A stretch of 50,525 nt of DNA, taken from positions 1 to 50,525 of IMG/VR virus record IMGVR_UViG_3300048588_000030; one strand, written 5' to 3'. A program made the position numbers and the translations under genes. Positions within the stretch are counted from its first letter, which is position 1. Every line of letters starts with the position of its first letter. The stretch comes from a virus. Lineage: Duplodnaviria > Caudoviricetes. The notes below the pieces were generated by a model. That model worked only from the letters and a program-made list of their open reading frames with translations. It was not told the DNA's origin and made no database searches. This document shows, piece by piece, positions 3,650 through 50,525 of this stretch.

Positions 3650-3850
3650 CTATTCATAGTCTCTGTACACCTCGTTTACGCCCTCATCATCCTTGTTAAA
3701 GTACGCGTTATTGACTTGTACCCAGTAATTACGGCACTCAGTAAGTTCTTTTCTGTGATTGCTTTGTTCCTTTTCCTTGCGAATTCGGTTGTATTTGGTA
3801 ACTTGGCGTGGTTTACTGCGTCCCCGCCTGTGCTCTCGAAGTGAACCCAC
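3650..3850 (-). CDS. Small basic hypothetical protein
   Basis: 66 aa, GTG start, GGAGG RBS. Confidence 0.55.
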   Translation of the reverse strand: MGSLREHRRGRSKPRQVTKYNRIRKEKEQSNHRKELTECRNYWVQVNNAYFNKDDEGVNEVYRDYE

Positions 3851-4176: not shown

Positions 4177-4604
4177 TCCAGCTCCCGCTCACACGCACTA
4201 TCCCCGTACTGCCACTCCAAATACGCTCGGATCTTGCGCAAGATCTTCTCGTGCTCCTCAATAGCTACCTGAAATCTCATGGCCGCAGTCTGAGAAGGTT
4301 GCATGTGATGCAGTGCATGGCACATCTGCCCAGCATTATTGGACACCAATTCCATGATAGTGCCCCATTCAGTTCTCGACATAAGCGGTGTACCTTCGGT
4401 CGCTTCGTCCCGGATAGCCTCGCTTTCAGGCCCGCTCTCCATCGGAGGCATTTCGTCCTCCCAAAATGCTAACGCTTGCTCCATGCCCTCCACCAGAGCA
4501 ATCTCCTCATCGGGCGAAAGTGCGTAGTCCTTTTCATCAAGCCATTCTTCCGGCTTGCCCTCGTACACATCCGCGCTCGTCTCACACGTATTAGGCGTTG
4601 TCAT
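4164..4604 (-). CDS. Acidic hypothetical early protein
   Basis: 146 aa, Glu-rich, ATGA overlap with the upstream ORF, GAGG RBS. Confidence 0.7.
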   Translation of the reverse strand: MTTPNTCETSADVYEGKPEEWLDEKDYALSPDEEIALVEGMEQALAFWEDEMPPMESGPESEAIRDEATEGTPLMSRTEWGTIMELVSNNAGQMCHALHHMQPSQTAAMRFQVAIEEHEKILRKIRAYLEWQYGDSACERELESYV

Positions 4605-5073: not shown

Positions 5074-5296
5074 GATTAGCTCGCCTCGATTGAAGTTCAA
5101 GTTGAGAGATGAGGAAACCGGCGATTGCACCTGGACGGGCGGAAGCAGGGAAATATCTGATATCATATTCTTCTTCCAGCCCCGTGCAGTAAACGAGCGC
5201 CTGGGTCAGGCTTTCGTTGAAAATAACTGAATACACCGCCCAGTCTGTATGGACGGTGTAGACCTGGTTGGTTGTTCGGCGGATTGAGAGTTTCAT
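5012..5296 (-). CDS. Hypothetical early protein
   Basis: 94 aa, GGAGG RBS and ATGA overlap with the upstream ORF; the 3' end overlaps the next ORF. Confidence 0.45.
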   Translation of the reverse strand: MKLSIRRTTNQVYTVHTDWAVYSVIFNESLTQALVYCTGLEEEYDIRYFPASARPGAIAGFLISQLELQSRRANHGCVHVGCAGSVVVHPQWVP

Positions 5297-6403: not shown

Positions 6404-6536
6404 CTACCAATCCCAAAAACAATTCCCCACGTGCATAGTATACGCCTATTCCATAAGATTTGGCGTGAGGCATTAAATATTTTTTTGCTGCATTGTCTGT
6501 GCATTGCTGGCAAAGCAGTCCGATGGAGCGGCAAAC

Positions 6537-6570
6537 AAAAAAGCCCGGTAGAGCTTTCGCCCTACCGGGT
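6537..6570 (-). terminator. Rho-independent terminator after the first early gene
   Basis: Minus strand reads CCCGGTAGGGC-GAAA-GCTCTACCGGG followed by CTTTTTT. Confidence 0.85.
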
Positions 6571-6585
6571 TAGTGTCGCCACGTT

Positions 6586-7236
6586 TTATGCTGCCATCTG
6601 TACCAGTTCGGCAACTGGATCAGCACTTGACGCTGCGGCAGTCGTGTCGTGATCACTTGCTGCCATGAGTGCCTTGACTGCTACCGTGATCGCGTCAAAT
6701 CGGCGTGCAGGTACGCTGCCATCCTTGATGCTCGCCGCAATGCTGGCAAGGTCGGCAAGGATCGCGGCACGTGCCTTATCCGCGTCCGTCATGGCGGCAG
6801 CTTTTGCCTTATCTTTTGCCTCTTTCACTGCCTTGTAGATGGCGCCGTAAGACGAATCAGCCGGCAGTTTAACCTTGAGTTCTATCGCGTCCGTCAAGGT
6901 AGACTTGGCCGTACGGTAGGAACCCGGCAGAACTGGCGAAGCCGCGCCAGTCTTGTCAGGTTTCCCGAGGATCACCGGGCAATCCTTCAGCAGGCCGGCC
7001 CGGTAATCGGACTCAACTTGCTCAAGCGCGCCGATCAATGCTGCCGGTGCCGGGTGCATGTTAAACAGCCGTGCTACCAGCACATAGGTACCCTCTTTCT
7101 TCTGCTTAGCGCTATCGGTCGCGCCTTTCGTTTCGTACCCTGCCCGGAACGTGGCAAGCGCCAGTTCGGCCAAAGTCTGCTGGCGTCCGGGTTCGCTTGT
7201 CTGAGCGGGTACTTTCGTTTGTCTGTTCTTGCTCAT
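6586..7236 (-). CDS. First early gene, Ala/Lys-rich hypothetical protein
   Basis: 216 aa, GAGG RBS, followed by its own terminator. Confidence 0.85.
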   Translation of the reverse strand: MSKNRQTKVPAQTSEPGRQQTLAELALATFRAGYETKGATDSAKQKKEGTYVLVARLFNMHPAPAALIGALEQVESDYRAGLLKDCPVILGKPDKTGAASPVLPGSYRTAKSTLTDAIELKVKLPADSSYGAIYKAVKEAKDKAKAAAMTDADKARAAILADLASIAASIKDGSVPARRFDAITVAVKALMAASDHDTTAAASSADPVAELVQMAA

Positions 7237-7352
7237 GGTCGTTGCCTCTTGTAATGGCGCGCGGTGCGTGCCTTCAGATGTATTAGAACACGATTCCTAG
7301 TCAGATTGGAAGTACCTAGTAAATCTTTTTCGTGCCTTTCTCGGTGCGCGTT

Positions 7353-7366
7353 GTCATACGTATAAC
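7353..7366. promoter_or_regulatory. Palindromic operator-like site GTCATACGTATAAC (copy 5)
   Basis: Lies just downstream of the proximal sigma-54 promoter. Confidence 0.65.
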
Positions 7367-7392
7367 TTTAGACTTGGCATGCTTCGTGACTG

Positions 7393-7409
7393 TGCAAGTA
7401 CCGTGCCAG
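7393..7409 (-). promoter_or_regulatory. Sigma-54 (-24/-12) promoter 1
   Basis: CTGGCACGGTACTTGCA matches the consensus YTGGCACGRNNNTTGCW exactly. Confidence 0.8.
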
Positions 7410-7440
7410 CGTAGATTCAGCCTAGACTGTCCCCGTCGCG

Positions 7441-7457
7441 TGCAAGGATCGTGCCAA
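7441..7457 (-). promoter_or_regulatory. Sigma-54 (-24/-12) promoter 2
   Basis: TTGGCACGATCCTTGCA, exact consensus match. Confidence 0.8.
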
Positions 7458-7479
7458 CGTGCCAGCGTGTGCCGTTGCG

Positions 7480-7496
7480 TGCAAGATCCGTGCCAA
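7480..7496 (-). promoter_or_regulatory. Sigma-54 (-24/-12) promoter 3
   Basis: TTGGCACGGATCTTGCA, exact consensus match. Confidence 0.8.
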
Positions 7497-7548
7497 GTCG
7501 CCGGGTTATGGCCAGTACTGTATGGATGCACAGTGGTTGAGAGTGAAA

Positions 7549-7565
7549 TGCACCACTTTAGTGCG
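7549..7565. promoter_or_regulatory. NtrC-like enhancer box 1
   Basis: TGCACCACTTTAGTGCG against the NtrC dyad TGCACCA-N3-TGGTGCA; upstream of the sigma-54 sites. Confidence 0.65.
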
Positions 7566-7576
7566 AGACCCCGTTT

Positions 7577-7593
7577 TGCCCCATTTTGGTGCG
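7577..7593. promoter_or_regulatory. NtrC-like enhancer box 2
   Basis: TGCCCCATTTTGGTGCG; 28 bp centre-to-centre from box 1. Confidence 0.65.
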
Positions 7594-8055
7594 CCAACGC
7601 CGCATAGCGGCATTATGCGCATACCGCGGTGCAACATGCAGGGACCCCACCCACGGGTGGTGGTACGGAGGGGGGTCGCGCAAGTGAAATACACCCTCAA
7701 ATTATCTCCAAAAAATTATTACCTAGGATTGGGGGCTACGTACTCTGGGGTAGGGTATGTACCCTAAACCCTCACCAGACTGCGTATAATGCGTTTTAAG
7801 CAACTTTAACCCTAAACCAATGCCAAGGTAGCGGGTAGGGGGTATAAATACGTCCTAGACGATTATACGAGACGAGTGCCAATCCGGGGCGGTAGGTCCC
7901 TGTTGGGACCGTTCACTGCCCCGTACCATGCCCTCGGCAGTAGATCTGAACTGCCTCGGGTATTATACGCGAGGGTACCGAGCGTGCACGCTAAATTTAA
8001 ATTTAACCAAATATCAGGTACTTAGTATTTTTGGTAAAAATAAATTATATTTTCT

Positions 8056-8086
8056 TGTCACAAACGACGTTTTCAAACGTTTATAT
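8056..8086 (+). promoter_or_regulatory. Putative phage ECF-sigma promoter (late arm)
   Basis: TGTCACA-aacgacgttttcaaa-CGTTTATAT; the same motif and spacing recur at 40664 and 46585. Confidence 0.75.
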
Positions 8087-8277
8087 TATATATACTACGT
8101 GTTTTTATTATATATATATATAATATATTATATAATATATATTATAATATATATATAAATAATATAATAATTATATAATATAATAAATATATAATATATT
8201 AATAATATATATATATATAATATTATATATAATATATTATAATAATATAATATACTAAAATAATATAATATACTAAA
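8081..8277. repeat. Low-complexity, almost pure A/T tract (TA/TAA units)
   Basis: About 195 bp with only a handful of G/C in an otherwise balanced-GC genome. Confidence 0.9.
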
Positions 8278-8355
8278 CACCGTCCCGGGCCAGTTACCAC
8301 TGTCCCGGGTATATAATAACCATAGCTCCCTGTTGGAGCTTCACTGGAGCCTTGA

Positions 8356-9057
8356 ATGGGTGGGGAAGATATCCAAGACCAACTGCCGGGAAACCAAGAG
8401 TTCCCCGGAGAGGGCTTGGCCTCGGAGGAGGAGCGAGGGAGCGAATACACCACCGGGAAGGAGAACAAACCTCCCCGGAAACGTGGTTACGTTGCTGAAG
8501 CTATGCCGGACATCGCTAGGCGAGTCCGGGATGCCCGTGGTCGTTACCTGACATCCGCCCTGTTCCAAGAAACTAAACGCCCCGACTCACCGTACGAGCC
8601 CATCTACACCCTTGCCGAGTTCCCCAAGCACAATCGGATCTGTGCCCGGCAACTGTACATGGAAGCCAACGACCCCACAGAGTACGCCGCTGCCCTCTCG
8701 ATTCTCGGTTCTTGGGAACATTGGCAGCATCTCTGTGCGGCCCCTTGGTTTGCCCCGGTCGTGGAGCAGTGGAGGGCGGAGCTGAAACAGAAGCTCCTGT
8801 TCGAGGCGACGAAGAAAGTTATCGACCTTTGCGACTCTTACGAATCAAGTTCGTCCCTTGCTGCTGCCAAGAAGCTCATGGACACTTTGGCACCCAAACC
8901 TAAAAGTGCCCCCAGACGCAATAGGACGGCCTCTGACGAACAATCGCCTGAAACCCATATCAACCCCGTGGGTAGGCCCCATAAACCACCCGTGCTCAAC
9001 GAGGTAAGCCCCGAGGACACGGACGCCGATCTAGCGAGGATCTTGGAATTTGGCTAA
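8356..9057 (+). CDS. terS: Terminase small subunit (putative)
   Basis: LYMExxDPTEY..A...LGSWEHW..L....WF...V..WR.EL pattern recalled from SIO1/VpV262/PA11-type phages; first gene of the late arm. Confidence 0.7.
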   Translation: MGGEDIQDQLPGNQEFPGEGLASEEERGSEYTTGKENKPPRKRGYVAEAMPDIARRVRDARGRYLTSALFQETKRPDSPYEPIYTLAEFPKHNRICARQLYMEANDPTEYAAALSILGSWEHWQHLCAAPWFAPVVEQWRAELKQKLLFEATKKVIDLCDSYESSSSLAAAKKLMDTLAPKPKSAPRRNRTASDEQSPETHINPVGRPHKPPVLNEVSPEDTDADLARILEFG

Positions 9058-10600
9058 GCTAACTCTCACCGATGTAGCTCTTGGGGCTAGCGCAATAGCG
9101 GCGATTAACGCCAATAGTGCCGCCATTGAGGCGGCTAGTGATGGATGGGTGTCCAGAGACGGCACGTCCCCAAACCAAATGGAAGCCGATCTAGACATGA
9201 ACTCGCACCGGGTAGTTAATCTAGCTCCCGGAGTAAACCCTAACGACGCAGCTACGGTCAGCCAGATAGCTCCCGGCCCGGCTGGTCCTGCTGGTCCTGC
9301 CGGTCCCACGGGTCCTACTGGTCCTGCCGGCCCTACAGGTCCTGCGGGAGCTGGTGGAGCTGGCACACTGCCCGCTGGGGATTACGGGGACATTGTCGTT
9401 ACAGAGTCCCCAACAACGATCAACATCAAACCAGCGGTAGCTACTGTGGTTGGCCGCGCAGTCATGGGGGCAGTAAGCACTACTGCAGCTCGCACCGCCC
9501 TGGCACTCGGCTCTTCTGCGCTGTACAACGTTGAAGACTTCGACGCTAGTGGTACTGCTGTTGCTACTGTAGATGCACACGTCTCTGCCAGTGATCCGCA
9601 TCCCGTATACGTAACAAACGCGGACTTGAGCGCACATGGACTAGCCGCAAACCCTCATCCAGTATACGCAACAGATGCCGATCTTGCGGCCCACGCGGCA
9701 GCCGCAGATCCGCACGCTGGGTATGTGTTGGACGCTACCTTAGCGGCGCACACCTCAGCTGCGTCGCCGCACGCAGGTCATACTACTGATGCGGAGTTCT
9801 CAGCGCACGTTGCAGGAGTTGATGCCCATCCGGGATACGTCACAGATGCTGAGCTTGCTGCCCACGTGGCTGCTGCGGACCCGCACCCAGACTACGCTAC
9901 CGAGACTTACGTAAACGGAATCGTACTTGCCCCTTTATCTTCTATTCCTGATGGCCTAGTTACTGCCCCCGGACTGGCGTTTTTTGACGAGCCGAACAGT
10001 GGGTTCTATCGTGACACTAACTTTCAGGTCAAGTTAGCTCTCAATGGGGTGAGTAGTTATACATTTACTCAAGGTAAACTAATCGGCCCTTCGGCGTCTG
10101 TAGCTACGTCAGAGACAGGATACGTAAGTGGAGGTACTGTTGCAGCTCGTGATTACCCATCTGGCGGGGGTAAACTGTGCACGATATACAAAGCCTCACA
10201 ACTTATTTCAGCGACCACCGCTACCAAGATTACAACATGGGACAGCCTAGCTAATGCGAGTTCAGACAGTACGTACTTTGGTGCAGTAACTACCGCCAGA
10301 TCAACTGGAGATATTTTTGTTGGCCTCATTACAGGTCGATTTCAGCTAACGCTTACAGGTTACGTGGATGACACAGGCGGTGGGGCTCGTGTGTGGTTCG
10401 AGTTCTATAAAAATGATGCACCGTTAACGGCTCCAGTTAGGACGCTCGTTGATCTGGCCAGTGGGTATTCTGGGCAGGTTGCGCTTTCCACTGTGTGTAG
10501 CGGGACCGCAACTGATACATTCTCAGTGTACGCGTACCGAGAGACTAATAATAGGACTGTGCGGAATTTACACTTTACTGCTACTCTGCTAAGGTCATAA
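9050..10600 (+). CDS. Tail fibre protein with collagen-like and His-containing repeats
   Basis: TTG start; N-terminal anchor (SRDGxxPNxMxxDLDMN), (GPX)8, six 19-aa repeats, beta-rich C-terminus. Confidence 0.8.
   Translation: MAKLTLTDVALGASAIAAINANSAAIEAASDGWVSRDGTSPNQMEADLDMNSHRVVNLAPGVNPNDAATVSQIAPGPAGPAGPAGPTGPTGPAGPTGPAGAGGAGTLPAGDYGDIVVTESPTTINIKPAVATVVGRAVMGAVSTTAARTALALGSSALYNVEDFDASGTAVATVDAHVSASDPHPVYVTNADLSAHGLAANPHPVYATDADLAAHAAAADPHAGYVLDATLAAHTSAASPHAGHTTDAEFSAHVAGVDAHPGYVTDAELAAHVAAADPHPDYATETYVNGIVLAPLSSIPDGLVTAPGLAFFDEPNSGFYRDTNFQVKLALNGVSSYTFTQGKLIGPSASVATSETGYVSGGTVAARDYPSGGGKLCTIYKASQLISATTATKITTWDSLANASSDSTYFGAVTTARSTGDIFVGLITGRFQLTLTGYVDDTGGGARVWFEFYKNDAPLTAPVRTLVDLASGYSGQVALSTVCSGTATDTFSVYAYRETNNRTVRNLHFTATLLRS
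9275..9346 (+). repeat. Collagen-like (Gly-Pro-X)8 coding repeat
   Basis: GPAGPAGPAGPTGPTGPAGPTGPA. Confidence 0.9.
9572..9913 (+). repeat. Six ~57-bp coding repeats (AH...DPHxxY..DA.L)
   Basis: For example AAHAAAADPHAGYVLDATL and AAHVAAADPHPDYATETYV. Confidence 0.8.
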
Positions 10601-11177: not shown

Positions 11178-12716
11178 ATGTCCAAGCACGATGAGATAAA
11201 GCTCGCTGCAGAGGAGTCACTACTAGCCTTTATACGACTTATTGCTCCACATCGTGTTCTGAGTCCGTGCCACGTAGATCTTATTCGCTGGTGGACTCGG
11301 GATGATGCCAAGTCCCATCAGCTAACCCTGATGCCACGGGATCACCAGAAGAGTGCCTTGATAGCCTACCGTGTAGCGTGGACGATTACCAAGAAACCAG
11401 AATCAACCTTTCTGTATATCTCGTCTACTGCTAACCTTGCTGAGAAGCAACTTAAGTTCATCAAGGATATCCTCACTAGCAAGATCTACCGACGCTACTG
11501 GCCAGAAATGGTCAACATGGATGAGGGCCGTCGTGAGAAGTGGACTACTAGCGAAATTGCGGTCGATCACCCTATTCGCAAGCAAGAGGGAGTACGCGAT
11601 CCTACAATCTTTACTGGTGGTCTTACTACCTCCCTTACTGGGATGCATTGTTCTAACGCTGTTCTGGATGACGTAGTAGTTCAAGAGAACGCGTACACTA
11701 AAGAGGGCCGACAGAAGGTCAAGGAGCAGTATAGTCTTCTGGCCTCTATCGAGTCCGCCGATGCCTCTGAATGGACTGTGGGCACGCGCTACCACGCTGA
11801 TGACCTGTATGGCTCCCAGATCGATATGATGGCTGAGGAGTTCGACGAGGCAGGTAACATGGTCTCGCAGGAGCCCGTGTACGAGGTCTACCAGCGTGAG
11901 GTTGAGGATGTTGGCGATGGCACAGGTAACTACCTCTGGCCCCGCCAGCAGCGCTACGATGGCCGGTGGTTCGGATTCGACCAACGAGTTCTGTCTAGGA
12001 AGCGCGCACAGTACTTGGACCGTTCCCAGTTTCGTGCCCAGTACTACAACAACCCCAATGATCCGGATAACGAGGTCATCGGAAGCCACCTGTTCCAGAA
12101 GTACGATAGAAAGTTCTTGGAGAAGCGTGGCGGGACGTGGACTATCCGAGGAAAGACACTGGCTGTATTTGCAGCCATAGACTTTGCGTTCAGTCTAAAG
12201 GCTACCGCCGACTATACTGCTATCGCTGTTGTTGGTGTTAATAGTTCTGGTGAGATCTATGTCCTTGAGATCCTGCGATTCAGGAGCAACAGGATAACCG
12301 ACTACTTCGATTCGCTGATGGATCTACACATGAAGTGGGGGTTCCGTAAGCTGCGAGCTGAGGTGTCGGTAGCACAGGAAGTGATTGTCGAGGAGTTGCG
12401 TGCTCGCGTGCGAGAGGCGGGTTACGGGCTGTCTATTGACACCCACCGCCCAACCCGCAACGAAGGCGACAAGGCTGAGCGTATTCACGCTATCCTTGCT
12501 CCACGCTACGAGAGCCTGTCTATCTGGCACTACGATAGCGGCTCTATCTCAGATCTGGAGGATGAGTTGAAGCAAGAGCACCCAAGACACGACGACTTGA
12601 AGGACGCCCTTGCGAGTGCTGTTTCCATTTCAGTAGTTCCCAAAGAGCGCCAAGCAGCCAACGTTGTCAGTATCAACACTCATTCTAGGTTTGGTGGAGT
12701 AGCGTTCCGTGGTTAG
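11178..12716 (+). CDS. terL: Terminase large subunit
   Basis: Walker A-like MPRDHQKS, Walker B AVLDD, GTRY coupling motif, RNase H-like IDFA...DYTA...HDDLKDA. Start moved to MSKHD at 11178. Confidence 0.93.
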   Translation: MSKHDEIKLAAEESLLAFIRLIAPHRVLSPCHVDLIRWWTRDDAKSHQLTLMPRDHQKSALIAYRVAWTITKKPESTFLYISSTANLAEKQLKFIKDILTSKIYRRYWPEMVNMDEGRREKWTTSEIAVDHPIRKQEGVRDPTIFTGGLTTSLTGMHCSNAVLDDVVVQENAYTKEGRQKVKEQYSLLASIESADASEWTVGTRYHADDLYGSQIDMMAEEFDEAGNMVSQEPVYEVYQREVEDVGDGTGNYLWPRQQRYDGRWFGFDQRVLSRKRAQYLDRSQFRAQYYNNPNDPDNEVIGSHLFQKYDRKFLEKRGGTWTIRGKTLAVFAAIDFAFSLKATADYTAIAVVGVNSSGEIYVLEILRFRSNRITDYFDSLMDLHMKWGFRKLRAEVSVAQEVIVEELRARVREAGYGLSIDTHRPTRNEGDKAERIHAILAPRYESLSIWHYDSGSISDLEDELKQEHPRHDDLKDALASAVSISVVPKERQAANVVSINTHSRFGGVAFRG

Positions 12717-15635: not shown

Positions 15636-16613
15636 ATGTCATCTATTACTTCTGGCATTAGCCATCTTACACGATCACAGGTATGGTCGGAAGAGCTGAA
15701 GGAGATTCTGCTCGACGAACTTACTGGTCAGGGGCATGTGCGTTGGATTCCGTTCGCTGACGGCGATCTGCTTAACATTCCGTCTATCGGTGAGGGTACG
15801 GTCCGTAATTATACGGAAGATACTGCGGCGCAGTATGACTCGCTTGATACTGGCAACTTCACGTTCCAGATCACTGAGTACCTGCAGAGCGGTACGTACA
15901 TCACGGAAAAGGCTCGTCAGGATCTGAAGTACGCTGCTGAGCTGGAGGCAAGCTTCATCCCGAAGCAGTCTCGTGCTCTCATGGAGCGCCTTGAGACGGA
16001 CGTGTACGCACTTGCTGCAGTCAACGCGTCTGGTGGTCAGGTTGCTGGTCTCAACGAGATCAATGGTGCGGCCCATCGGTTCACCGCAAGCGGCACCGCC
16101 GTTAGTGGCGAGCGCCCGATGGCTATCAAGGACTTTGCTCGTGTACTTTACGGCCTTAAGAAAGCCAACGTGCCCGGCCAGTCGCTTATTGCAATTGTAG
16201 ATCCGTCGGTAGAGTTTACCATGAATACGATGGCAAATCTGGTCGATGTGAGCAATAATCCGCGGTGGGAAGGTATCATTACGTCTGGTATCGGCGCTGG
16301 TCCTCGGTTCGTTCGTAACATTTACGGCTTTGACGTGTATGTGTCGAACTACCTCCCGAGTGCGGGTAACGAGTCTATTGACAGTGTTGCCGTGTCGGAC
16401 TCGCTCGGTGGCGTTTCCAACATCTTCTTCTCGGCTGCCGACGCTCGCATCCTGCCCTTTATTGGTGCATGGCGCCAGATGCCGAAGGTTGATTCGGAGT
16501 ACAACAAGGACTTCCAGCGTGAGGAGTATCTCACCACGGCTCGGTATGGTCTGAAGGTGTATCGCCCGGAAAATCTCGTGGTGGTTAACTCCAGCACGCT
16601 TGTTGTCGCTTAA
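15636..16613 (+). CDS. Major capsid protein
   Basis: 325 aa; GD.LNIPSIG, RNIYGFDVYVSN, ARYGLKVYRPE; strong RBS and biased codons. Confidence 0.9.
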   Translation: MSSITSGISHLTRSQVWSEELKEILLDELTGQGHVRWIPFADGDLLNIPSIGEGTVRNYTEDTAAQYDSLDTGNFTFQITEYLQSGTYITEKARQDLKYAAELEASFIPKQSRALMERLETDVYALAAVNASGGQVAGLNEINGAAHRFTASGTAVSGERPMAIKDFARVLYGLKKANVPGQSLIAIVDPSVEFTMNTMANLVDVSNNPRWEGIITSGIGAGPRFVRNIYGFDVYVSNYLPSAGNESIDSVAVSDSLGGVSNIFFSAADARILPFIGAWRQMPKVDSEYNKDFQREEYLTTARYGLKVYRPENLVVVNSSTLVVA

Positions 16614-46636: not shown

Positions 46637-47161
46637 TTAATAATTCTCAGCAACCATCCTGAGTTTAGCTATTGCTCGTGACAGCAACTGCCGGGAATTA
46701 TCCTCACTTACCCCCAAACGTGTAGCTATCTCCGAGAAACTTGCTCCGTTGGCGTGCATGAAGTACACCGCCACCTGCTGCGGTGCAAGGTCGTTTACCG
46801 CTTGCATTATGGCTGCTTTCTGCTGCTCTGCAGCTAGGATGTCTTCTGGAGAATCCAACGAAGTGCCTACCGAGTACTCAACTAACAACTCGTCCCCTGC
46901 ATCCGTAACCTCCAACTCTAGGTGCCTGCCAATGTCCCGGCTAATGCGGCGGAGTACGTCAACACTCGCATTTGTAGCCATTCGACGAGCTATTCGCAGC
47001 AGTTCGTCATCAGAACCAGTAAAATCGTGGTATCTTTGCCACACTTTTACCAAAACTTCCTGTGCTACATCCTGAGCATCCGCCCTTTCTGGAAGAATCC
47101 CCGTGGAAACAGCCAACGCTGCATCGTGGCACGCCCATAGCTGCTTAGAATCTAGTGCCAT
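46637..47161 (-). CDS. ECF-type RNA polymerase sigma factor
   Basis: Region 2 DAQDVAQEVLVKVW...N...D.LRR; region 4 SFSEIATRLGVS...R.LL.RA. Confidence 0.9.
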   Translation of the reverse strand: MALDSKQLWACHDAALAVSTGILPERADAQDVAQEVLVKVWQRYHDFTGSDDELLRIARRMATNASVDVLRRISRDIGRHLELEVTDAGDELLVEYSVGTSLDSPEDILAAEQQKAAIMQAVNDLAPQQVAVYFMHANGASFSEIATRLGVSEDNSRQLLSRAIAKLRMVAENY

Positions 47162-47164
47162 ATG

Positions 47165-47959
47165 TCAATATCCTCGTGATGCTCGACGGTACATTTCAGC
47201 CCCAAATTCCCGAATATAGGTACTCAGAGTCGTTCCAGTAAGGCCCGGTGCGGTGTTAACCTCGTACACAGTCGCTTGTTGGATGTTCTCCGTCCATCCA
47301 ACGTCTACTGCGCCGAAGTCTAGCCCAAGTGCAGCCACTGCTGCTATGGATTGGTCTATGACATCGCGTGGAGGAGCGATCCCAGCACGACCAAATACCC
47401 ACCCGTTATCATAGTTACGCACCATATTGCGAGTCTCGGGGTCACCCAAAAATTCACCAGATCTTCGCATCTTTTTCTGCACATCGATGACACGTCCTTG
47501 CATGACGTGTACACGGTACTCGTCCTTCTTAGGCACATAGCGAACATAAAGCGGAAGCCCCTCCCTGACATCTTCTGGTCGTTTATAGATCTCAATTCCA
47601 CGTCCTGAACTGGAACGGAGTAGTCGCCGGCCAAAAACTATACGTTTTCGTGCCCACTTTCGGGCAACATTAACGTCCAAAGTATATTTTGGAATTTTTA
47701 TGCCCGCGGAATTAAGCAGCTCGAACGCCTTGAGCTTGTTACTGGCAAGTTTCACAGCACTTGGAGCGTTCAGCACGTACCCGCACCGCATTGCCCACGA
47801 CTCCGGTAGGGCAGACGAGCCCCAATTTACGATAGCATCACTGCCCCTAGGCACATAGGACGACTCCTCTGGTGCTCGCAATCGCTTAATCCTAAGCCCA
47901 CGACTTAGCTTTCTGGCACTGTCACTAAAGTAATTATACGCGTACAGCCGCCCTCGCAT
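47165..47959 (-). CDS. ATP-grasp (RimK-like) peptide ligase
   Basis: VNWG, A.NK, EYRVHV, LGLDFGAVD, EVNTAPG; start set to MRGRL at 47959 (GGAGG RBS). Confidence 0.9.
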   Translation of the reverse strand: MRGRLYAYNYFSDSARKLSRGLRIKRLRAPEESSYVPRGSDAIVNWGSSALPESWAMRCGYVLNAPSAVKLASNKLKAFELLNSAGIKIPKYTLDVNVARKWARKRIVFGRRLLRSSSGRGIEIYKRPEDVREGLPLYVRYVPKKDEYRVHVMQGRVIDVQKKMRRSGEFLGDPETRNMVRNYDNGWVFGRAGIAPPRDVIDQSIAAVAALGLDFGAVDVGWTENIQQATVYEVNTAPGLTGTTLSTYIREFGAEMYRRASRGY

Positions 47960-49637
47960 TAGACACCTCCATAGTTTCACTACATCCGCAATTAGCTACG
48001 TGCTCATTTCCTATCATCCGATATGATACAGCGTTAGCCATAGCAAACGTGATAGGCTGCCCACAGTCATAGCACCCACCCTTAGTCAGGTCAAGGAATC
48101 TCTGTGCTGATACCTTTGTGTTATACAGTCCCGGATAAACGAAGCCATCGACCCCGACATACGCCTTCTGTCTATTCTCTGTCGATATACTGTCAACTAA
48201 CTCTGTTGCGCTTGTGCAACGCGGCCCCCCTATCTGCACACTAGCCACGTCGTACGCGTCATCATCAGCATCATCGGTATCTACACCACTGGCATCAATG
48301 TCCTCCCCCTCATATAGCCACAAAGCCTCCTCCCCATGCTCATATGTCGGAACAAAGTCATCCGGCACCTTAGTCGATATCAGGCGACATATGACCTCGA
48401 CCTTTGTATCATCAAGTACCCGCACGCCTATTGGGGCGACCTCCCACACGTGGTCCTTGACTACCCACTGTCCCGGCTCAGCCTTGCCCAAACCTAACAG
48501 GGTGCTATCCAGTCCGTGCAAAGAAGCCTCGACTTGTGCGCACCCTAACTCCCCGGTCAAGCGAGCTATAGTGCGCCCGTTTCTCCTAGTAGAGTGCACT
48601 TGCAGTGGTACGAACAACATTCGATCATCGGGAGTGAGCGACCAATCCATTAACAACTCCAGCATACTATCAGGTATCTTCTTTTGGCGCTGCTCTGGTG
48701 CAGTAGTCGGCGTCACCTCTGTAGTAGGTTGCGCGCTGGGTGGTGTAATCACCGCTGGACGCTCGATGGGTTGCCGTCCCGGCCTGTAGTCTGCGCTATC
48801 ATCATCACAGTAAGATCCGTATGCGTCGTCATAGGCATGGGCCCACTGAGCATACGCCGAAGTTGCGCCACTGTAAGTCGTGTTGTATGTACAACGCTTA
48901 AGTTCAAGTTTGGTCATCTCCGGGGTAATAGTACTTGCTGCGTGGTGCCAGCGCATGAGTACGCCGGGATCAGGCTGAAAATACGTGTCAATGGTAATGC
49001 GAATTCGAGATGCCAACCATCGCAGCATTTCAAACTCAGAGGCGATGTACAGGGTGTTGCTGACACGAGATACCCCAAGGTGCAACGGCCGCTCACTATT
49101 GCGTATCAGATTGATGTACCCACTCCTAGAGTCGTACCACACCAGAGCAAACGCTCCCTCAATCTCCTTGATAACATCCTCTGGCGTGCCCTCATCCAGT
49201 GCGTGAGCTATGTAGTGACTGTCCACTTCAGCAGACTTGGACGAAAGCTTGTTGTGATTATGTATTGTTCCATTGTGAACAAGTGTGATAGCTCCAGATA
49301 TGAACGGGTGCGTGTTATCTGTCGTAGCCCGGCCTTTAGTTGCTGCCCTATTATGCCCAACCGCAGCAAACAAACTTGGCACTGTGCTCATGAAGCCCTT
49401 GGCTGCCGCATCGGCTAGAAACGCAGGGCCGGGCGCGGCCATACGTGCCCAACTAGCCTTTGGCACAGCAACTGAGTGCCGCTCCGCACTCGACGTGTAC
49501 GGCGGTCGCATTACACCAAATATCCCAGTGCCGTCTCTGCCGCGCAACGTGCCCGCAAACATAGCTTGTTCCAAGAAGCTTCGCTTATCTGCTGGGTGCA
49601 TAGCTGATGTAGTAATCACTCCAAATATTCCGCACAT
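47934..49637 (-). CDS. Class II (Ntn) glutamine amidotransferase with a long C-terminal extension
   Basis: MCGIFG, RG.D..G, GHNRAAT, HPF, HNGT, VDS. Confidence 0.92.
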   Translation of the reverse strand: MCGIFGVITTSAMHPADKRSFLEQAMFAGTLRGRDGTGIFGVMRPPYTSSAERHSVAVPKASWARMAAPGPAFLADAAAKGFMSTVPSLFAAVGHNRAATKGRATTDNTHPFISGAITLVHNGTIHNHNKLSSKSAEVDSHYIAHALDEGTPEDVIKEIEGAFALVWYDSRSGYINLIRNSERPLHLGVSRVSNTLYIASEFEMLRWLASRIRITIDTYFQPDPGVLMRWHHAASTITPEMTKLELKRCTYNTTYSGATSAYAQWAHAYDDAYGSYCDDDSADYRPGRQPIERPAVITPPSAQPTTEVTPTTAPEQRQKKIPDSMLELLMDWSLTPDDRMLFVPLQVHSTRRNGRTIARLTGELGCAQVEASLHGLDSTLLGLGKAEPGQWVVKDHVWEVAPIGVRVLDDTKVEVICRLISTKVPDDFVPTYEHGEEALWLYEGEDIDASGVDTDDADDDAYDVASVQIGGPRCTSATELVDSISTENRQKAYVGVDGFVYPGLYNTKVSAQRFLDLTKGGCYDCGQPITFAMANAVSYRMIGNEHVANCGCSETMEVSNARAAVRV

Positions 49638-50525
49638 TAAAACTCGTCCTCCTCAGTAGATTCATCGTTATCGTACTCTTCGTCATTGTACTCAATGTAC
49701 TCTTCATTATACCCCTCATCGTACTCCTGAACTTGCGTGAAAGTGGCCGTATCCTCTTGCGGCCTACGGAACGTATTCAAAAGCTCCCGAAAGTCAACTG
49801 GGCTATCAGCTCGTGCCGGAGCCGCACTAACTTTCTGATGCAAATTGCCGAAGCGCCACTTGAACGTGTCTGGTGATGGCGCTGGAGTATTGCCTAGAAG
49901 AATAGCTATAGAAGTGGGGATGTCGTACTCAAGCAACCACTCAACCTCCAACACAGACGACAGATTAGTGCGTACTGGCGTCGCATTGAACAGGCTTGGA
50001 ATGAGGCTTCGCACCACACTATCGACACTCCTCGTACGCAACTTGAGCAGTAGGTCGTCTGGAGATACGTCTCGTGAGTTGTGCATAAGCTCGTCAATAA
50101 CAGATAGCCACAGTCTTGCCTGTCCTACGTTGTCCCAAAGAGGTGCGTGACGGAACTCCAGCGTTCCGAACTTATGAATAGCCCCCAAGTTGAGTGCGCT
50201 GTACTTCTGAAAGTTATCCCACGCACCGCACCCACGCAGTGCACGGCTTAGCTGCTTGAGCGGAAGGTTAGCTCGGTAGAATGGTATGCAGTATATGTTC
50301 TCCTCTCGATCAGTTCCGCACATAGAGAATAGGATAGGCTCCACTAAACAGTACGCTGCCACGATATTGCGTACGCTATTCGGTGTTTCCAGTTGTACGT
50401 TAGCGTGCACGTGCATTGATGTTCGTATGCTTGAGGTGAACCCGTACGTATACCGCTCAGCGTAGAGCGCATCAAGCATGGAGTGTGCTTGCGTGCGCAT
50501 GACAGGACCGGCCAAGAACTCTATT
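49637..50525 (-). CDS. Putative amidoligase (glutamine synthetase/GCS fold), C-terminal part
   Basis: IEFL.GP at the window edge, RTSMHVH, KYSALN, GTLEFRH; the frame is open off the right edge. Confidence 0.88.
   Translation of the reverse strand, partial: IEFLAGPVMRTQAHSMLDALYAERYTYGFTSSIRTSMHVHANVQLETPNSVRNIVAAYCLVEPILFSMCGTDREENIYCIPFYRANLPLKQLSRALRGCGAWDNFQKYSALNLGAIHKFGTLEFRHAPLWDNVGQARLWLSVIDELMHNSRDVSPDDLLLKLRTRSVDSVVRSLIPSLFNATPVRTNLSSVLEVEWLLEYDIPTSIAILLGNTPAPSPDTFKWRFGNLHQKVSAAPARADSPVDFRELLNTFRRPQEDTATFTQVQEYDEGYNEEYIEYNDEEYDNDESTEEDEF

Follow-up and report, generated by a model that had tools for sequence, protein, structure and literature searches.

The stretch of DNA analysed here, referred to below as the window, is the complete IMG/VR virus record IMGVR_UViG_3300048588_000030, 50,525 bp long. 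Its genes form two opposed blocks that diverge from a control region of about 1.1 kb (7237-8355). The minus-strand genes run leftward from 7236 to 1 and then from 50525 to 36989; the first ~4.6 kb of this block consists of open reading frames (ORFs) of no known protein family, beyond which lie amidoligase, glutamine amidotransferase and ATP-grasp-type genes, followed by primase, helicase, DNA polymerase and exonuclease. The plus-strand genes (8356-36422) are structural and encode tail fibre, terminase, portal, major head, tail and internal virion proteins. The subject of this report is a tandem array of three predicted sigma-54 (RpoN) promoters of the -24/-12 type in the control region, designated P1, P2 and P3, which faces the leftward genes and is preceded by two candidate NtrC-type dyads (Table 1).

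Perfect matches to the sigma-54 pattern TGGCAC-N5-TTGCW were found at 7393-7408, 7441-7456 and 7480-7495, all on the minus strand. These three are the only perfect matches in the whole record, where 0.11 would be expected; none of 100 shuffled sequences contained three or more, and the reversed control pattern had no match on either the forward or the reverse strand of the record. Degenerate versions of the motif (up to two mismatches) are not enriched over the record (27 matches, 29.9 expected), so that the three perfect copies stand out. They follow each other with start-to-start spacings of 48 and 39 bp, and in each of them the GG and GC dinucleotides are separated by exactly 10 bp (GG-N10-GC). 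All three read YTGGCACGR...TTGCA, in agreement with extended sigma-54 preferences, and each fits the pattern TGGCA(T/C)(G/A)nnnnTTGCA given in an excerpt of PMC11704786. The array is intergenic. The ATG at 7236 follows it on the same strand at a distance of 157-260 bp, and no credible ORF intervenes.

An earlier note, made from the letters of this DNA alone, had reported three perfect tandem sites at these spacings together with an extra TGGCACG half-site, and had seen no strong TTGACA/TATAAT promoter. Reading of the strand and pattern search confirm the sites, and the half-site is indeed present at 7458-7464. No sigma-70-type promoter (TTGACA-17-TATAAT-like) was matched from 7237 to 8049 on the minus strand; weak sigma-70-like matches (9/12) occur only in the AT-rich tract farther upstream, four of them against 2.9 +/- 1.8 in shuffles. 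The transcription starts proposed in the note (7382, 7430 and 7469) agree with the rule, stated in a footnote to Table 1 within the consulted part of PMC4591121, by which transcription begins 19 bp downstream from the 17-mer's centre.

Table 1. Predicted elements of the control region and associated features, in order of position
Feature	Positions	Strand	Sequence	Remarks
First early ORF, 216 aa	6586-7236	minus		no PHROG, Pfam or IMG/VR relative
Leader between P1 and first early ATG	7237-7392	minus		no unusual RNA structure
P1, predicted sigma-54 promoter	7393-7409	minus	CTGGCACGGTACTTGCA	predicted start ~7382; leader to first ATG 146 nt
P2, predicted sigma-54 promoter	7441-7457	minus	TTGGCACGATCCTTGCA	predicted start ~7430; homologue of the single promoter of related contig G002
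Extra -24-like half-site	7458-7464	minus	TGGCACG	no -12 partner; 8 bp upstream of P2
P3, predicted sigma-54 -24/-12 promoter	7480-7496	minus	TTGGCACGGATCTTGCA	pattern search; predicted start ~7469
Candidate NtrC-type dyad 1	7549-7565	none	CGCACTAAAGTGGTGCA	3 mismatches; homologue of 1-mismatch site of G002
Candidate NtrC-type dyad 2	7577-7593	none	CGCACCAAAATGGGGCA	2 mismatches; 28 bp centre to centre from dyad 1
C-rich tract with palindrome	7641-7680	minus	CCACCCGTGGGTGG	upstream of dyads; similar tract in relatives
AT-rich tract between divergent gene blocks	8080-8277	none		pure A/T at ~8102-8254
ECF-like sigma factor (Sigma70_r2 + r4_2)	46637-47161	minus		32.1 bits against cut-off 24; in leftward early/middle block

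The three copies retain every consensus base while their spacers vary. The note had seen that they differ only at degenerate consensus positions and took this to point to selection on the motif and not to simple duplication, which is only partly right. P2 and P3 share their flanks (84% identity over 25 nt), and to judge from this they are probably products of a local duplication. P1 is more diverged (64%).

Next, we examined the DNA upstream of the array for activator sites. The NtrC box is given as TGCACCAnnnTGGTGCA in section 20 of PMC8743547 and as TGCACC(A/T)4TGGTGCA in Table 1 of PMC4987338, both consulted as excerpts. Sites with at most three mismatches to such a box occur at only three loci in 50.5 kb, two of them at the array and the third at 16453-16469; the scan yielded six strand-hits where 1.33 were expected, a number equalled in one of 100 shuffles. 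Both dyads at the array are situated 53-113 bp upstream of P3, and with respect to the predicted starts near 7469, 7430 and 7382 their centres fall at about -88/-116, -127/-155 and -175/-203, i.e. paired dyads lie about 80-200 bp from the start, as looked for in an NtrC enhancer. The dyads are both enriched and conserved (see below), and judging by sequence other activators with similar sites could fit them as well. The note had pointed out that sigma-54 holoenzyme needs an AAA+ activator and that the phage appears to encode none. The latter statement is correct insofar as the Sigma54_activat domain has no match at E<=1 in the six frames of the record, the same search being positive in 14 of 14 control genomes. 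Since two NtrC-type dyads sit just upstream of the array, the objection of the missing activator falls away: a host activator can presumably serve these promoters, and one encoded by the phage would not be needed.

The control region is not traceable by DNA similarity: neither megablast with 6500-9500 nor blastn with 7000-8400 matched anything in the phage collection. The first early protein has no relative in IMG/VR, and the other early ORFs likewise belong to no known family. The closest relative, and the only close one that includes the region, is contig G002, whose terminase large subunit (TerL) is 84% identical and whose early and flanking proteins are 25-55% identical to those of the window; a COOH-NH2 ligase probe for further early regions retrieved only G002 and one distant contig. 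G002 carries one perfect sigma-54 promoter, GTGGCACGATACTTGCA, and about 85-117 bp upstream of it a dyad with one mismatch, CGCACCAAAATGGTGCA, beside another with three, TGCACTCTTTCGGTGCA. When these upstream regions of the window and G002 are aligned, only 239 of 471 columns (51%) are identical, and identity rises to at least 14 of 17 positions in just three islands, namely 7566-7540 (an NtrC dyad), 7459-7435 (P2) and 7711-7695 (unexplained). The 17-mer of P2 (7457-7441) is identical to G002 at 15 of 17 positions, and the 17-mers beginning at 7456 and 7455 at 16 of 17. The stretch of G002 aligned with P1 reads, by eye, GG-N9-GC, so that its spacing is off by one. The second dyad has been relocated, lying upstream of the first in the window and downstream of it in G002 (18 bp centre to centre in G002, 28 bp in the window), and yet the pair is kept in both. 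As for the third island, the block TTGGAGATAATTTGAGG (7695-7711) is retained in G002 at 14 of 17 positions and lies upstream of the C-rich tract; the G002 bases adjoining it form a sigma-54-like site with two mismatches, TGGCATTTCCCTTGCG, which is missing from the window.

The survey was extended to 80 loci defined by TerL (892,158 bases), of which 33 include at least 3.5 kb of upstream sequence. Seven perfect sites were found. Five of them face the early genes, 2,883-3,011 bp upstream of TerL, and represent three distinct sequences (L170; L180, L181 and L183, which are identical; L196), while the remaining two (L193, L194) fall inside a coding frame and were taken as chance matches. Early-facing sites with one mismatch and intact GG and GC dinucleotides are present in PQ867844.1, L247, L375, L379 and L372. 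In PQ867844.1, three repeats of CGTAACACTT are located about 90 bp upstream of the site; such upstream repeats vary between lineages, which suggests that different lineages use different activators. Among cultured phages, PA11 has two near-consensus sites, one of which is kept in K4 with two spacer changes; this is weak evidence, and support from cultured phages is altogether weak. The search of relatives for the array, advised in the note, showed a homologous site in G002 and perfect early-facing sites in three further distinct relatives, with the motif missing from most of the others.

A census of viral contigs in IMG/VR placed the array in a wider setting. The module of NtrC half-dyads and a sigma-54 core 75-105 bp apart occurs in 28 stretches, G002 among them, compared with one for the reversed control, and all seven module loci whose proteins were scanned carry TerL and/or portal. 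L237 has three perfect promoters, L231 and L243 two perfect ones plus one with a single mismatch each, and in all three the promoters are interleaved with perfect or near-perfect NtrC boxes. Same-strand tandem sigma-54 pairs 20-50 bp apart were found in at least 120 viral stretches against 3 for the reversed control, counts that include repeated sampling of similar contigs. Among the 118 loci in the matches listed, the largest cluster has two copies in 72, three in 15, four in 16, five in 8 and six in 7 loci, and nine of these loci share proteins with the window. In 350 distinct phage copies the positions left free by the search pattern are biased: T/C precedes TGGCAC in 79%, G/A follows it in 96% and A/T follows TTGC in 87%. 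At these positions the phage copies follow the extended sigma-54 consensus (PMC11704786); the corresponding sites of E. coli are tabulated in PMC4591121.

Some contigs of the census carry much denser arrangements. Within 1 kb of L236 there are 11 motif copies, five of them with a period of 17-19 bp, and L238 has 13. In L236 (3060-4100) all eleven motifs face early genes; runs of a CAGCACG repeat are also present, as are three NtrC-like dyads placed between the last promoters. Face-to-face motif pairs with 3-7 bp between their -12 elements were detected in L359, L331 and L247, where (at 3660-3790, 219-377 and 4261-4493, respectively) they form palindromes of ~33-50 bp in up to three repeats. 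One such pair could not host two polymerases simultaneously.

The portal of the phage is 46-49% and its TerL up to 59% identical to those of Zobellviridae members (PA11, Lentibacter and Celeribacter phages, Vibrio ICP2-like phages), and PA11 has the same layout of two opposed gene blocks. From portal and TerL kinship together with layout, we regard the phage as a Zobellviridae-like podovirus. The comparison with lytic podoviruses such as T7 made in the note does not fit: the phage is not T7-like, no RNA polymerase was detected, and it has an ECF-like sigma factor of its own. The nearest cultured relatives (TerL at most 59% identical) infect Alpha-, Beta- and Gammaproteobacteria. No integrase was found in the record. 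T7-type RNA polymerase (PF00940) gave no hit in the record either, a weak negative because the control was silent too; members of Zobellviridae are reported, in the part of PMC9960094 consulted, to be without RNA polymerase. With no hit to a T7-type polymerase, a family described as being without one and a sigma factor of its own, the phage must presumably rely on the polymerase of its host. The ECF-like sigma probably serves the late genes.

Our favoured reading, which we hold with moderate confidence, is that the array constitutes NtrC-activated, sigma-54-dependent tandem early promoters. Sigma-54 holoenzyme would occupy each site as a closed complex, and a host enhancer-binding protein of the NtrC type, bound to both dyads, would loop over and open these complexes. 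Leftward transcripts would then cross the early genes of no known family (7236 to 1) and, the record being circularly permuted, may run on into the replication and nucleotide block (50525 to 36989). The ECF-like sigma encoded in that block would subsequently activate the rightward structural genes. Under such a scheme the start of infection would hinge on host RpoN and on active NtrC, the signal of low glutamine or nitrogen limitation. As to the corresponding proposal of the earlier note, comparative evidence speaks for sites that are under selection and placed to drive early genes, while its T7-like framing and its full rejection of simple duplication have to be given up.

Several observations weigh against this reading. 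A perfect early-facing site is present in only 5 of the 33 TerL loci that include 3.5 kb or more of upstream sequence, and four of five relatives' records, two of these complete, are without any perfect site. Vibrio phage Saratov-12 has no site in which both dinucleotides, GG and GC, are intact, Caulobacter phage RW, which is related to the L248 group, shows no site with up to one mismatch, and in K4 one of the two PA11 sites is broken (GC to CC). In the L248 group and L247 the module faces the terminase/portal side. The window dyads are imperfect, with two and three mismatches to the NtrC consensus, and among the matches listed none of the 118 tandem loci has an NtrC box (up to two mismatches) within 300 bp, so that NtrC is not the general partner of such arrays. 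Arrays as dense as 11 or 13 copies, with a 17-19 bp period or face-to-face pairs, cannot all be promoters. At spacings of 39 and 48 bp, neighbouring open complexes would clash. The sigma-70-like matches in the AT-rich tract could yield early transcripts by read-through. Finally, a lytic programme tied to nitrogen limitation looks risky for the phage.

A second explanation, which we consider unlikely, is that the sites serve as a sponge, landing pad or roadblock that holds holoenzyme or free sigma-54, initiation not being their main role. A replicating genome would titrate scarce sigma-54 and silence the sigma-54 responses of the host, or polymerase would be held near the genome end. Sigma-54 holoenzyme is able to bind inactively, as it does at many non-promoter sites in E. 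coli according to the sections of PMC4591121 consulted. Copies beyond the need for a promoter (11 within 1 kb in L236, 13 in L238), the palindromic face-to-face pairs of L359, L331 and L247 and even the extra half-site in the window would all find a use here. The much denser arrays of other viral contigs lend some indirect support to the sigma-54 sink suggested in the note. The window, however, has just three copies, all facing the early genes, and no other early promoter was found on the minus strand (7237-8049). The NtrC-type enhancer kept in G002 is not required for a sponge, and G002, G006, G007 and G008 have one site each, too few for titration before replication. Owing to the dense and palindromic arrays elsewhere, a role as sponge or landing pad stays alive, possibly besides promoter function.

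It is also conceivable, and in our estimation distinctly improbable, that the T(G/T)GCACG heptamers are sites for another protein, such as a phage early protein, the phage sigma or a host regulator, and resemble sigma-54 elements by coincidence. A span of 104 bp contains eight YKGCAC(G/A) heptamers on a single strand, the shared flanks of P2 and P3 are reminiscent of repeated operators, the palindromic pairs of other contigs look like operators of dimeric proteins, and the phage has its own sigma factor and many early proteins of no known family. A coincidence would nevertheless have to account for the exact GG-N10-GC geometry of every copy, for the agreement of unfixed positions with the extended sigma-54 consensus in 350 copies and for co-occurrence with NtrC dyads in 28 stretches against one in the control. 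Moreover, relatives keep one full -24/-12 unit and not lone heptamers, and phages with the motif in common do not have conserved early proteins. Factors of the sigma-70 family require two elements ~16-18 bp apart, a spacing with which the 11-bp repeat does not agree. That the array is a functionless relic of local duplication or a chance occurrence, as the P2/P3 identity (84% over 25 nt including flanks) and the absence of the motif from most relatives might hint, is extremely improbable given three matches where 0 of 100 shuffles reached that number, a homologous site kept in G002 amid flanking DNA of 51% identity, consensus bases retained in all three copies with differing spacers, and viral tandem pairs at least 40 times commoner than the control.

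If the early programme does depend on sigma-54 and activated NtrC, infection would be conditional on nitrogen limitation of the host. Textbook lytic phages rely first on strong sigma-70 promoters or bring their own polymerase. Nitrogen gating, if true, would bear on phage killing of starving bacteria in natural waters, which are commonly short of nitrogen. When sigma-70 activity falls under ppGpp, sigma-54 promoters gain an advantage, an effect that would rationalise early transcription persisting in starvation. The census (at least 120 tandem pairs against 3, and 28 NtrC modules against 1) suggests a regulatory design that is widespread and of which the window is one instance. It is possible, and we advance it only tentatively, that many uncultured tailed phages, forming a set not described before in which most of the phages examined are without their own RNA polymerase, connect their control regions to host sigma-54 through arrays of consensus -24/-12 sites, that in the NtrC subset, to which the window belongs, nitrogen or glutamine gates the start of the lytic programme (in some lineages its finish), and that denser arrays may soak up sigma-54. 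A design of this kind would supply compact promoter parts gated by an activator, and it makes it conceivable that phages titrate a host sigma factor.

Other features of the control region and the genome deserve mention. The leader RNA (7237-7382) is unstructured (minimum free energy -27.6 kcal/mol, z = 0.18). No tRNA was found, and Rfam returned a single sub-threshold hit for 7000-8500; in the control region of L247 (~5170-5260) a tRNA-like sequence was noticed by eye only. A candidate rightward promoter motif, YCGGGTATWWTA, was rejected as a genome-wide family because its three matches (0.76 expected) are all in the control region. The AT-rich tract, about 200 bp long, has a similar counterpart at the end of the G002 contig and another at the same place in PQ867844.1; it may act in replication, as an origin or unwinding element, or else have to do with packaging or the genome terminus. 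Enzymes related to glutamine are clustered at 47165-50515 and 1106-2541 (RimK-like S6 glutaminyl transferase, glutamine amidotransferase, amidoligase, COOH-NH2 ligase, gamma-glutamyl cyclotransferase). This set is common to PA11, and a tie to the glutamine-sensing NtrC enhancer is suggestive only.

Minus-strand ORFs run off both ends of the record (1-142 and 49637-50525, with 49637-50524 matching amidoligase families). Because genes are cut at both ends, the record is a circularly permuted assembly in which the virion ends are not shown. In K4, O4, TC6 and IME180 the record has its start or its end ~12 bp short of the conserved C-rich tract; by analogy with them, the array of the window may lie ~150-290 bp inside a physical genome end, in a T7-like position. 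For the DNA-entry ratchet suggested in the note, these record ends offer positional support only. A C- or G-rich tract also adjoins the sigma-54 sites of L204, L170, L196, L210 (PA11), L222/L213, L247, L236, L302, L331, L351 and L359, in control regions that are otherwise mostly unrelated, and, as the ends of PA11-like records would have it, the tract may mark the physical genome end. Contigs of ~11 kb (L263, L325 and similar ones) have inward tandem pairs near both ends, in the manner of inverted terminal repeats (in L263 at 99-171 on the plus and 11613-11685 on the minus strand); L263 begins with bases that resemble what we take to be a sequencing adapter, which would mean a true molecule end. 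In the unrelated phage group of L248 (7614-10042), TerL is seemingly split into two ORFs, and in Caulobacter phage RW a methyltransferase gene separates two TerL parts.

The searchable open-access literature yielded no account of phages with sigma-54 early promoters, NtrC enhancers or sigma-54 arrays. What is new here is the host-activator dyads upstream of the array, the conserved islands shared with G002 and the viral census of arrays and modules. PMC7693777 deals with a putative sigma-54-like phage protein only and not with promoters, and PMC8744999 links rpoN, glnDLG and himAD mutants of Salmonella to phage resistance, explained indirectly via RpoS and glutamine.

Among known systems, the glnAp2 promoter of enteric bacteria offers an obvious comparison. 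It combines a -24/-12 promoter with two NtrC dyads ~80-200 bp upstream (excerpts of PMC8743547 and PMC4987338), an arrangement which the predicted promoters and candidate dyads of the window resemble. No activator gene is required in cis in either case. The window differs in that its promoter lies in the control region of a lytic phage and is triplicated at 39- and 48-bp spacing, and in that its dyads have two to three mismatches and are 28 bp apart (18 bp in G002), activation by NtrC being predicted only. The NtrC sites of glnAp2 are ~32 bp apart, at -108 and -140.

The one precedent known to us is that of the Pseudomonas phages YuA and M6, which reportedly possess sigma-54 promoters, described by Ceyssens et al. 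in J Bacteriol in 2008, whose rpoN dependence is said to have been established by promoter trap and an rpoN mutant. YuA is said to be a siphovirus in which single sigma-54 sites serve the region for particle formation and lysis as late promoters. Compared with that account, the window has a tandem cluster which heads the early genes of a podovirus and is accompanied by an NtrC-type enhancer; contigs of the L248 group, where the module faces terminase and portal, come closer to the arrangement reported for YuA.

T7 begins with tandem early promoters A1, A2 and A3 for the sigma-70 polymerase of the host, more than 100 bp apart. The likeness consists in three tandem promoters for host polymerase heading the early genes, with a genome end probably near (by analogy only). 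In contrast to T7, the promoters of the window are of the sigma-54 class, which needs an ATP-dependent activator, no -35/-10 elements were found with them, their spacing is 39-48 bp, and no takeover by a phage RNA polymerase would follow. In phiEco32 and 7-11 the host polymerase reads early promoters that are likewise of sigma-70 type, and a phage-encoded sigma then serves later genes; the predicted promoters of the window are of sigma-54 type with a candidate enhancer. Like the window, these two are podoviruses without their own polymerase, with opposed gene blocks and a phage factor of the sigma-70 family (PMC9960094 and PMC8948821, both in part). Inactive and intragenic sigma-54 sites of E. 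coli, as presented in the consulted portion of PMC4591121, are of consensus quality and hold holoenzyme without firing, and they provide the model for a sponge. Those sites are single, scattered and often intragenic, while the phage sites are clustered, intergenic and oriented towards genes.

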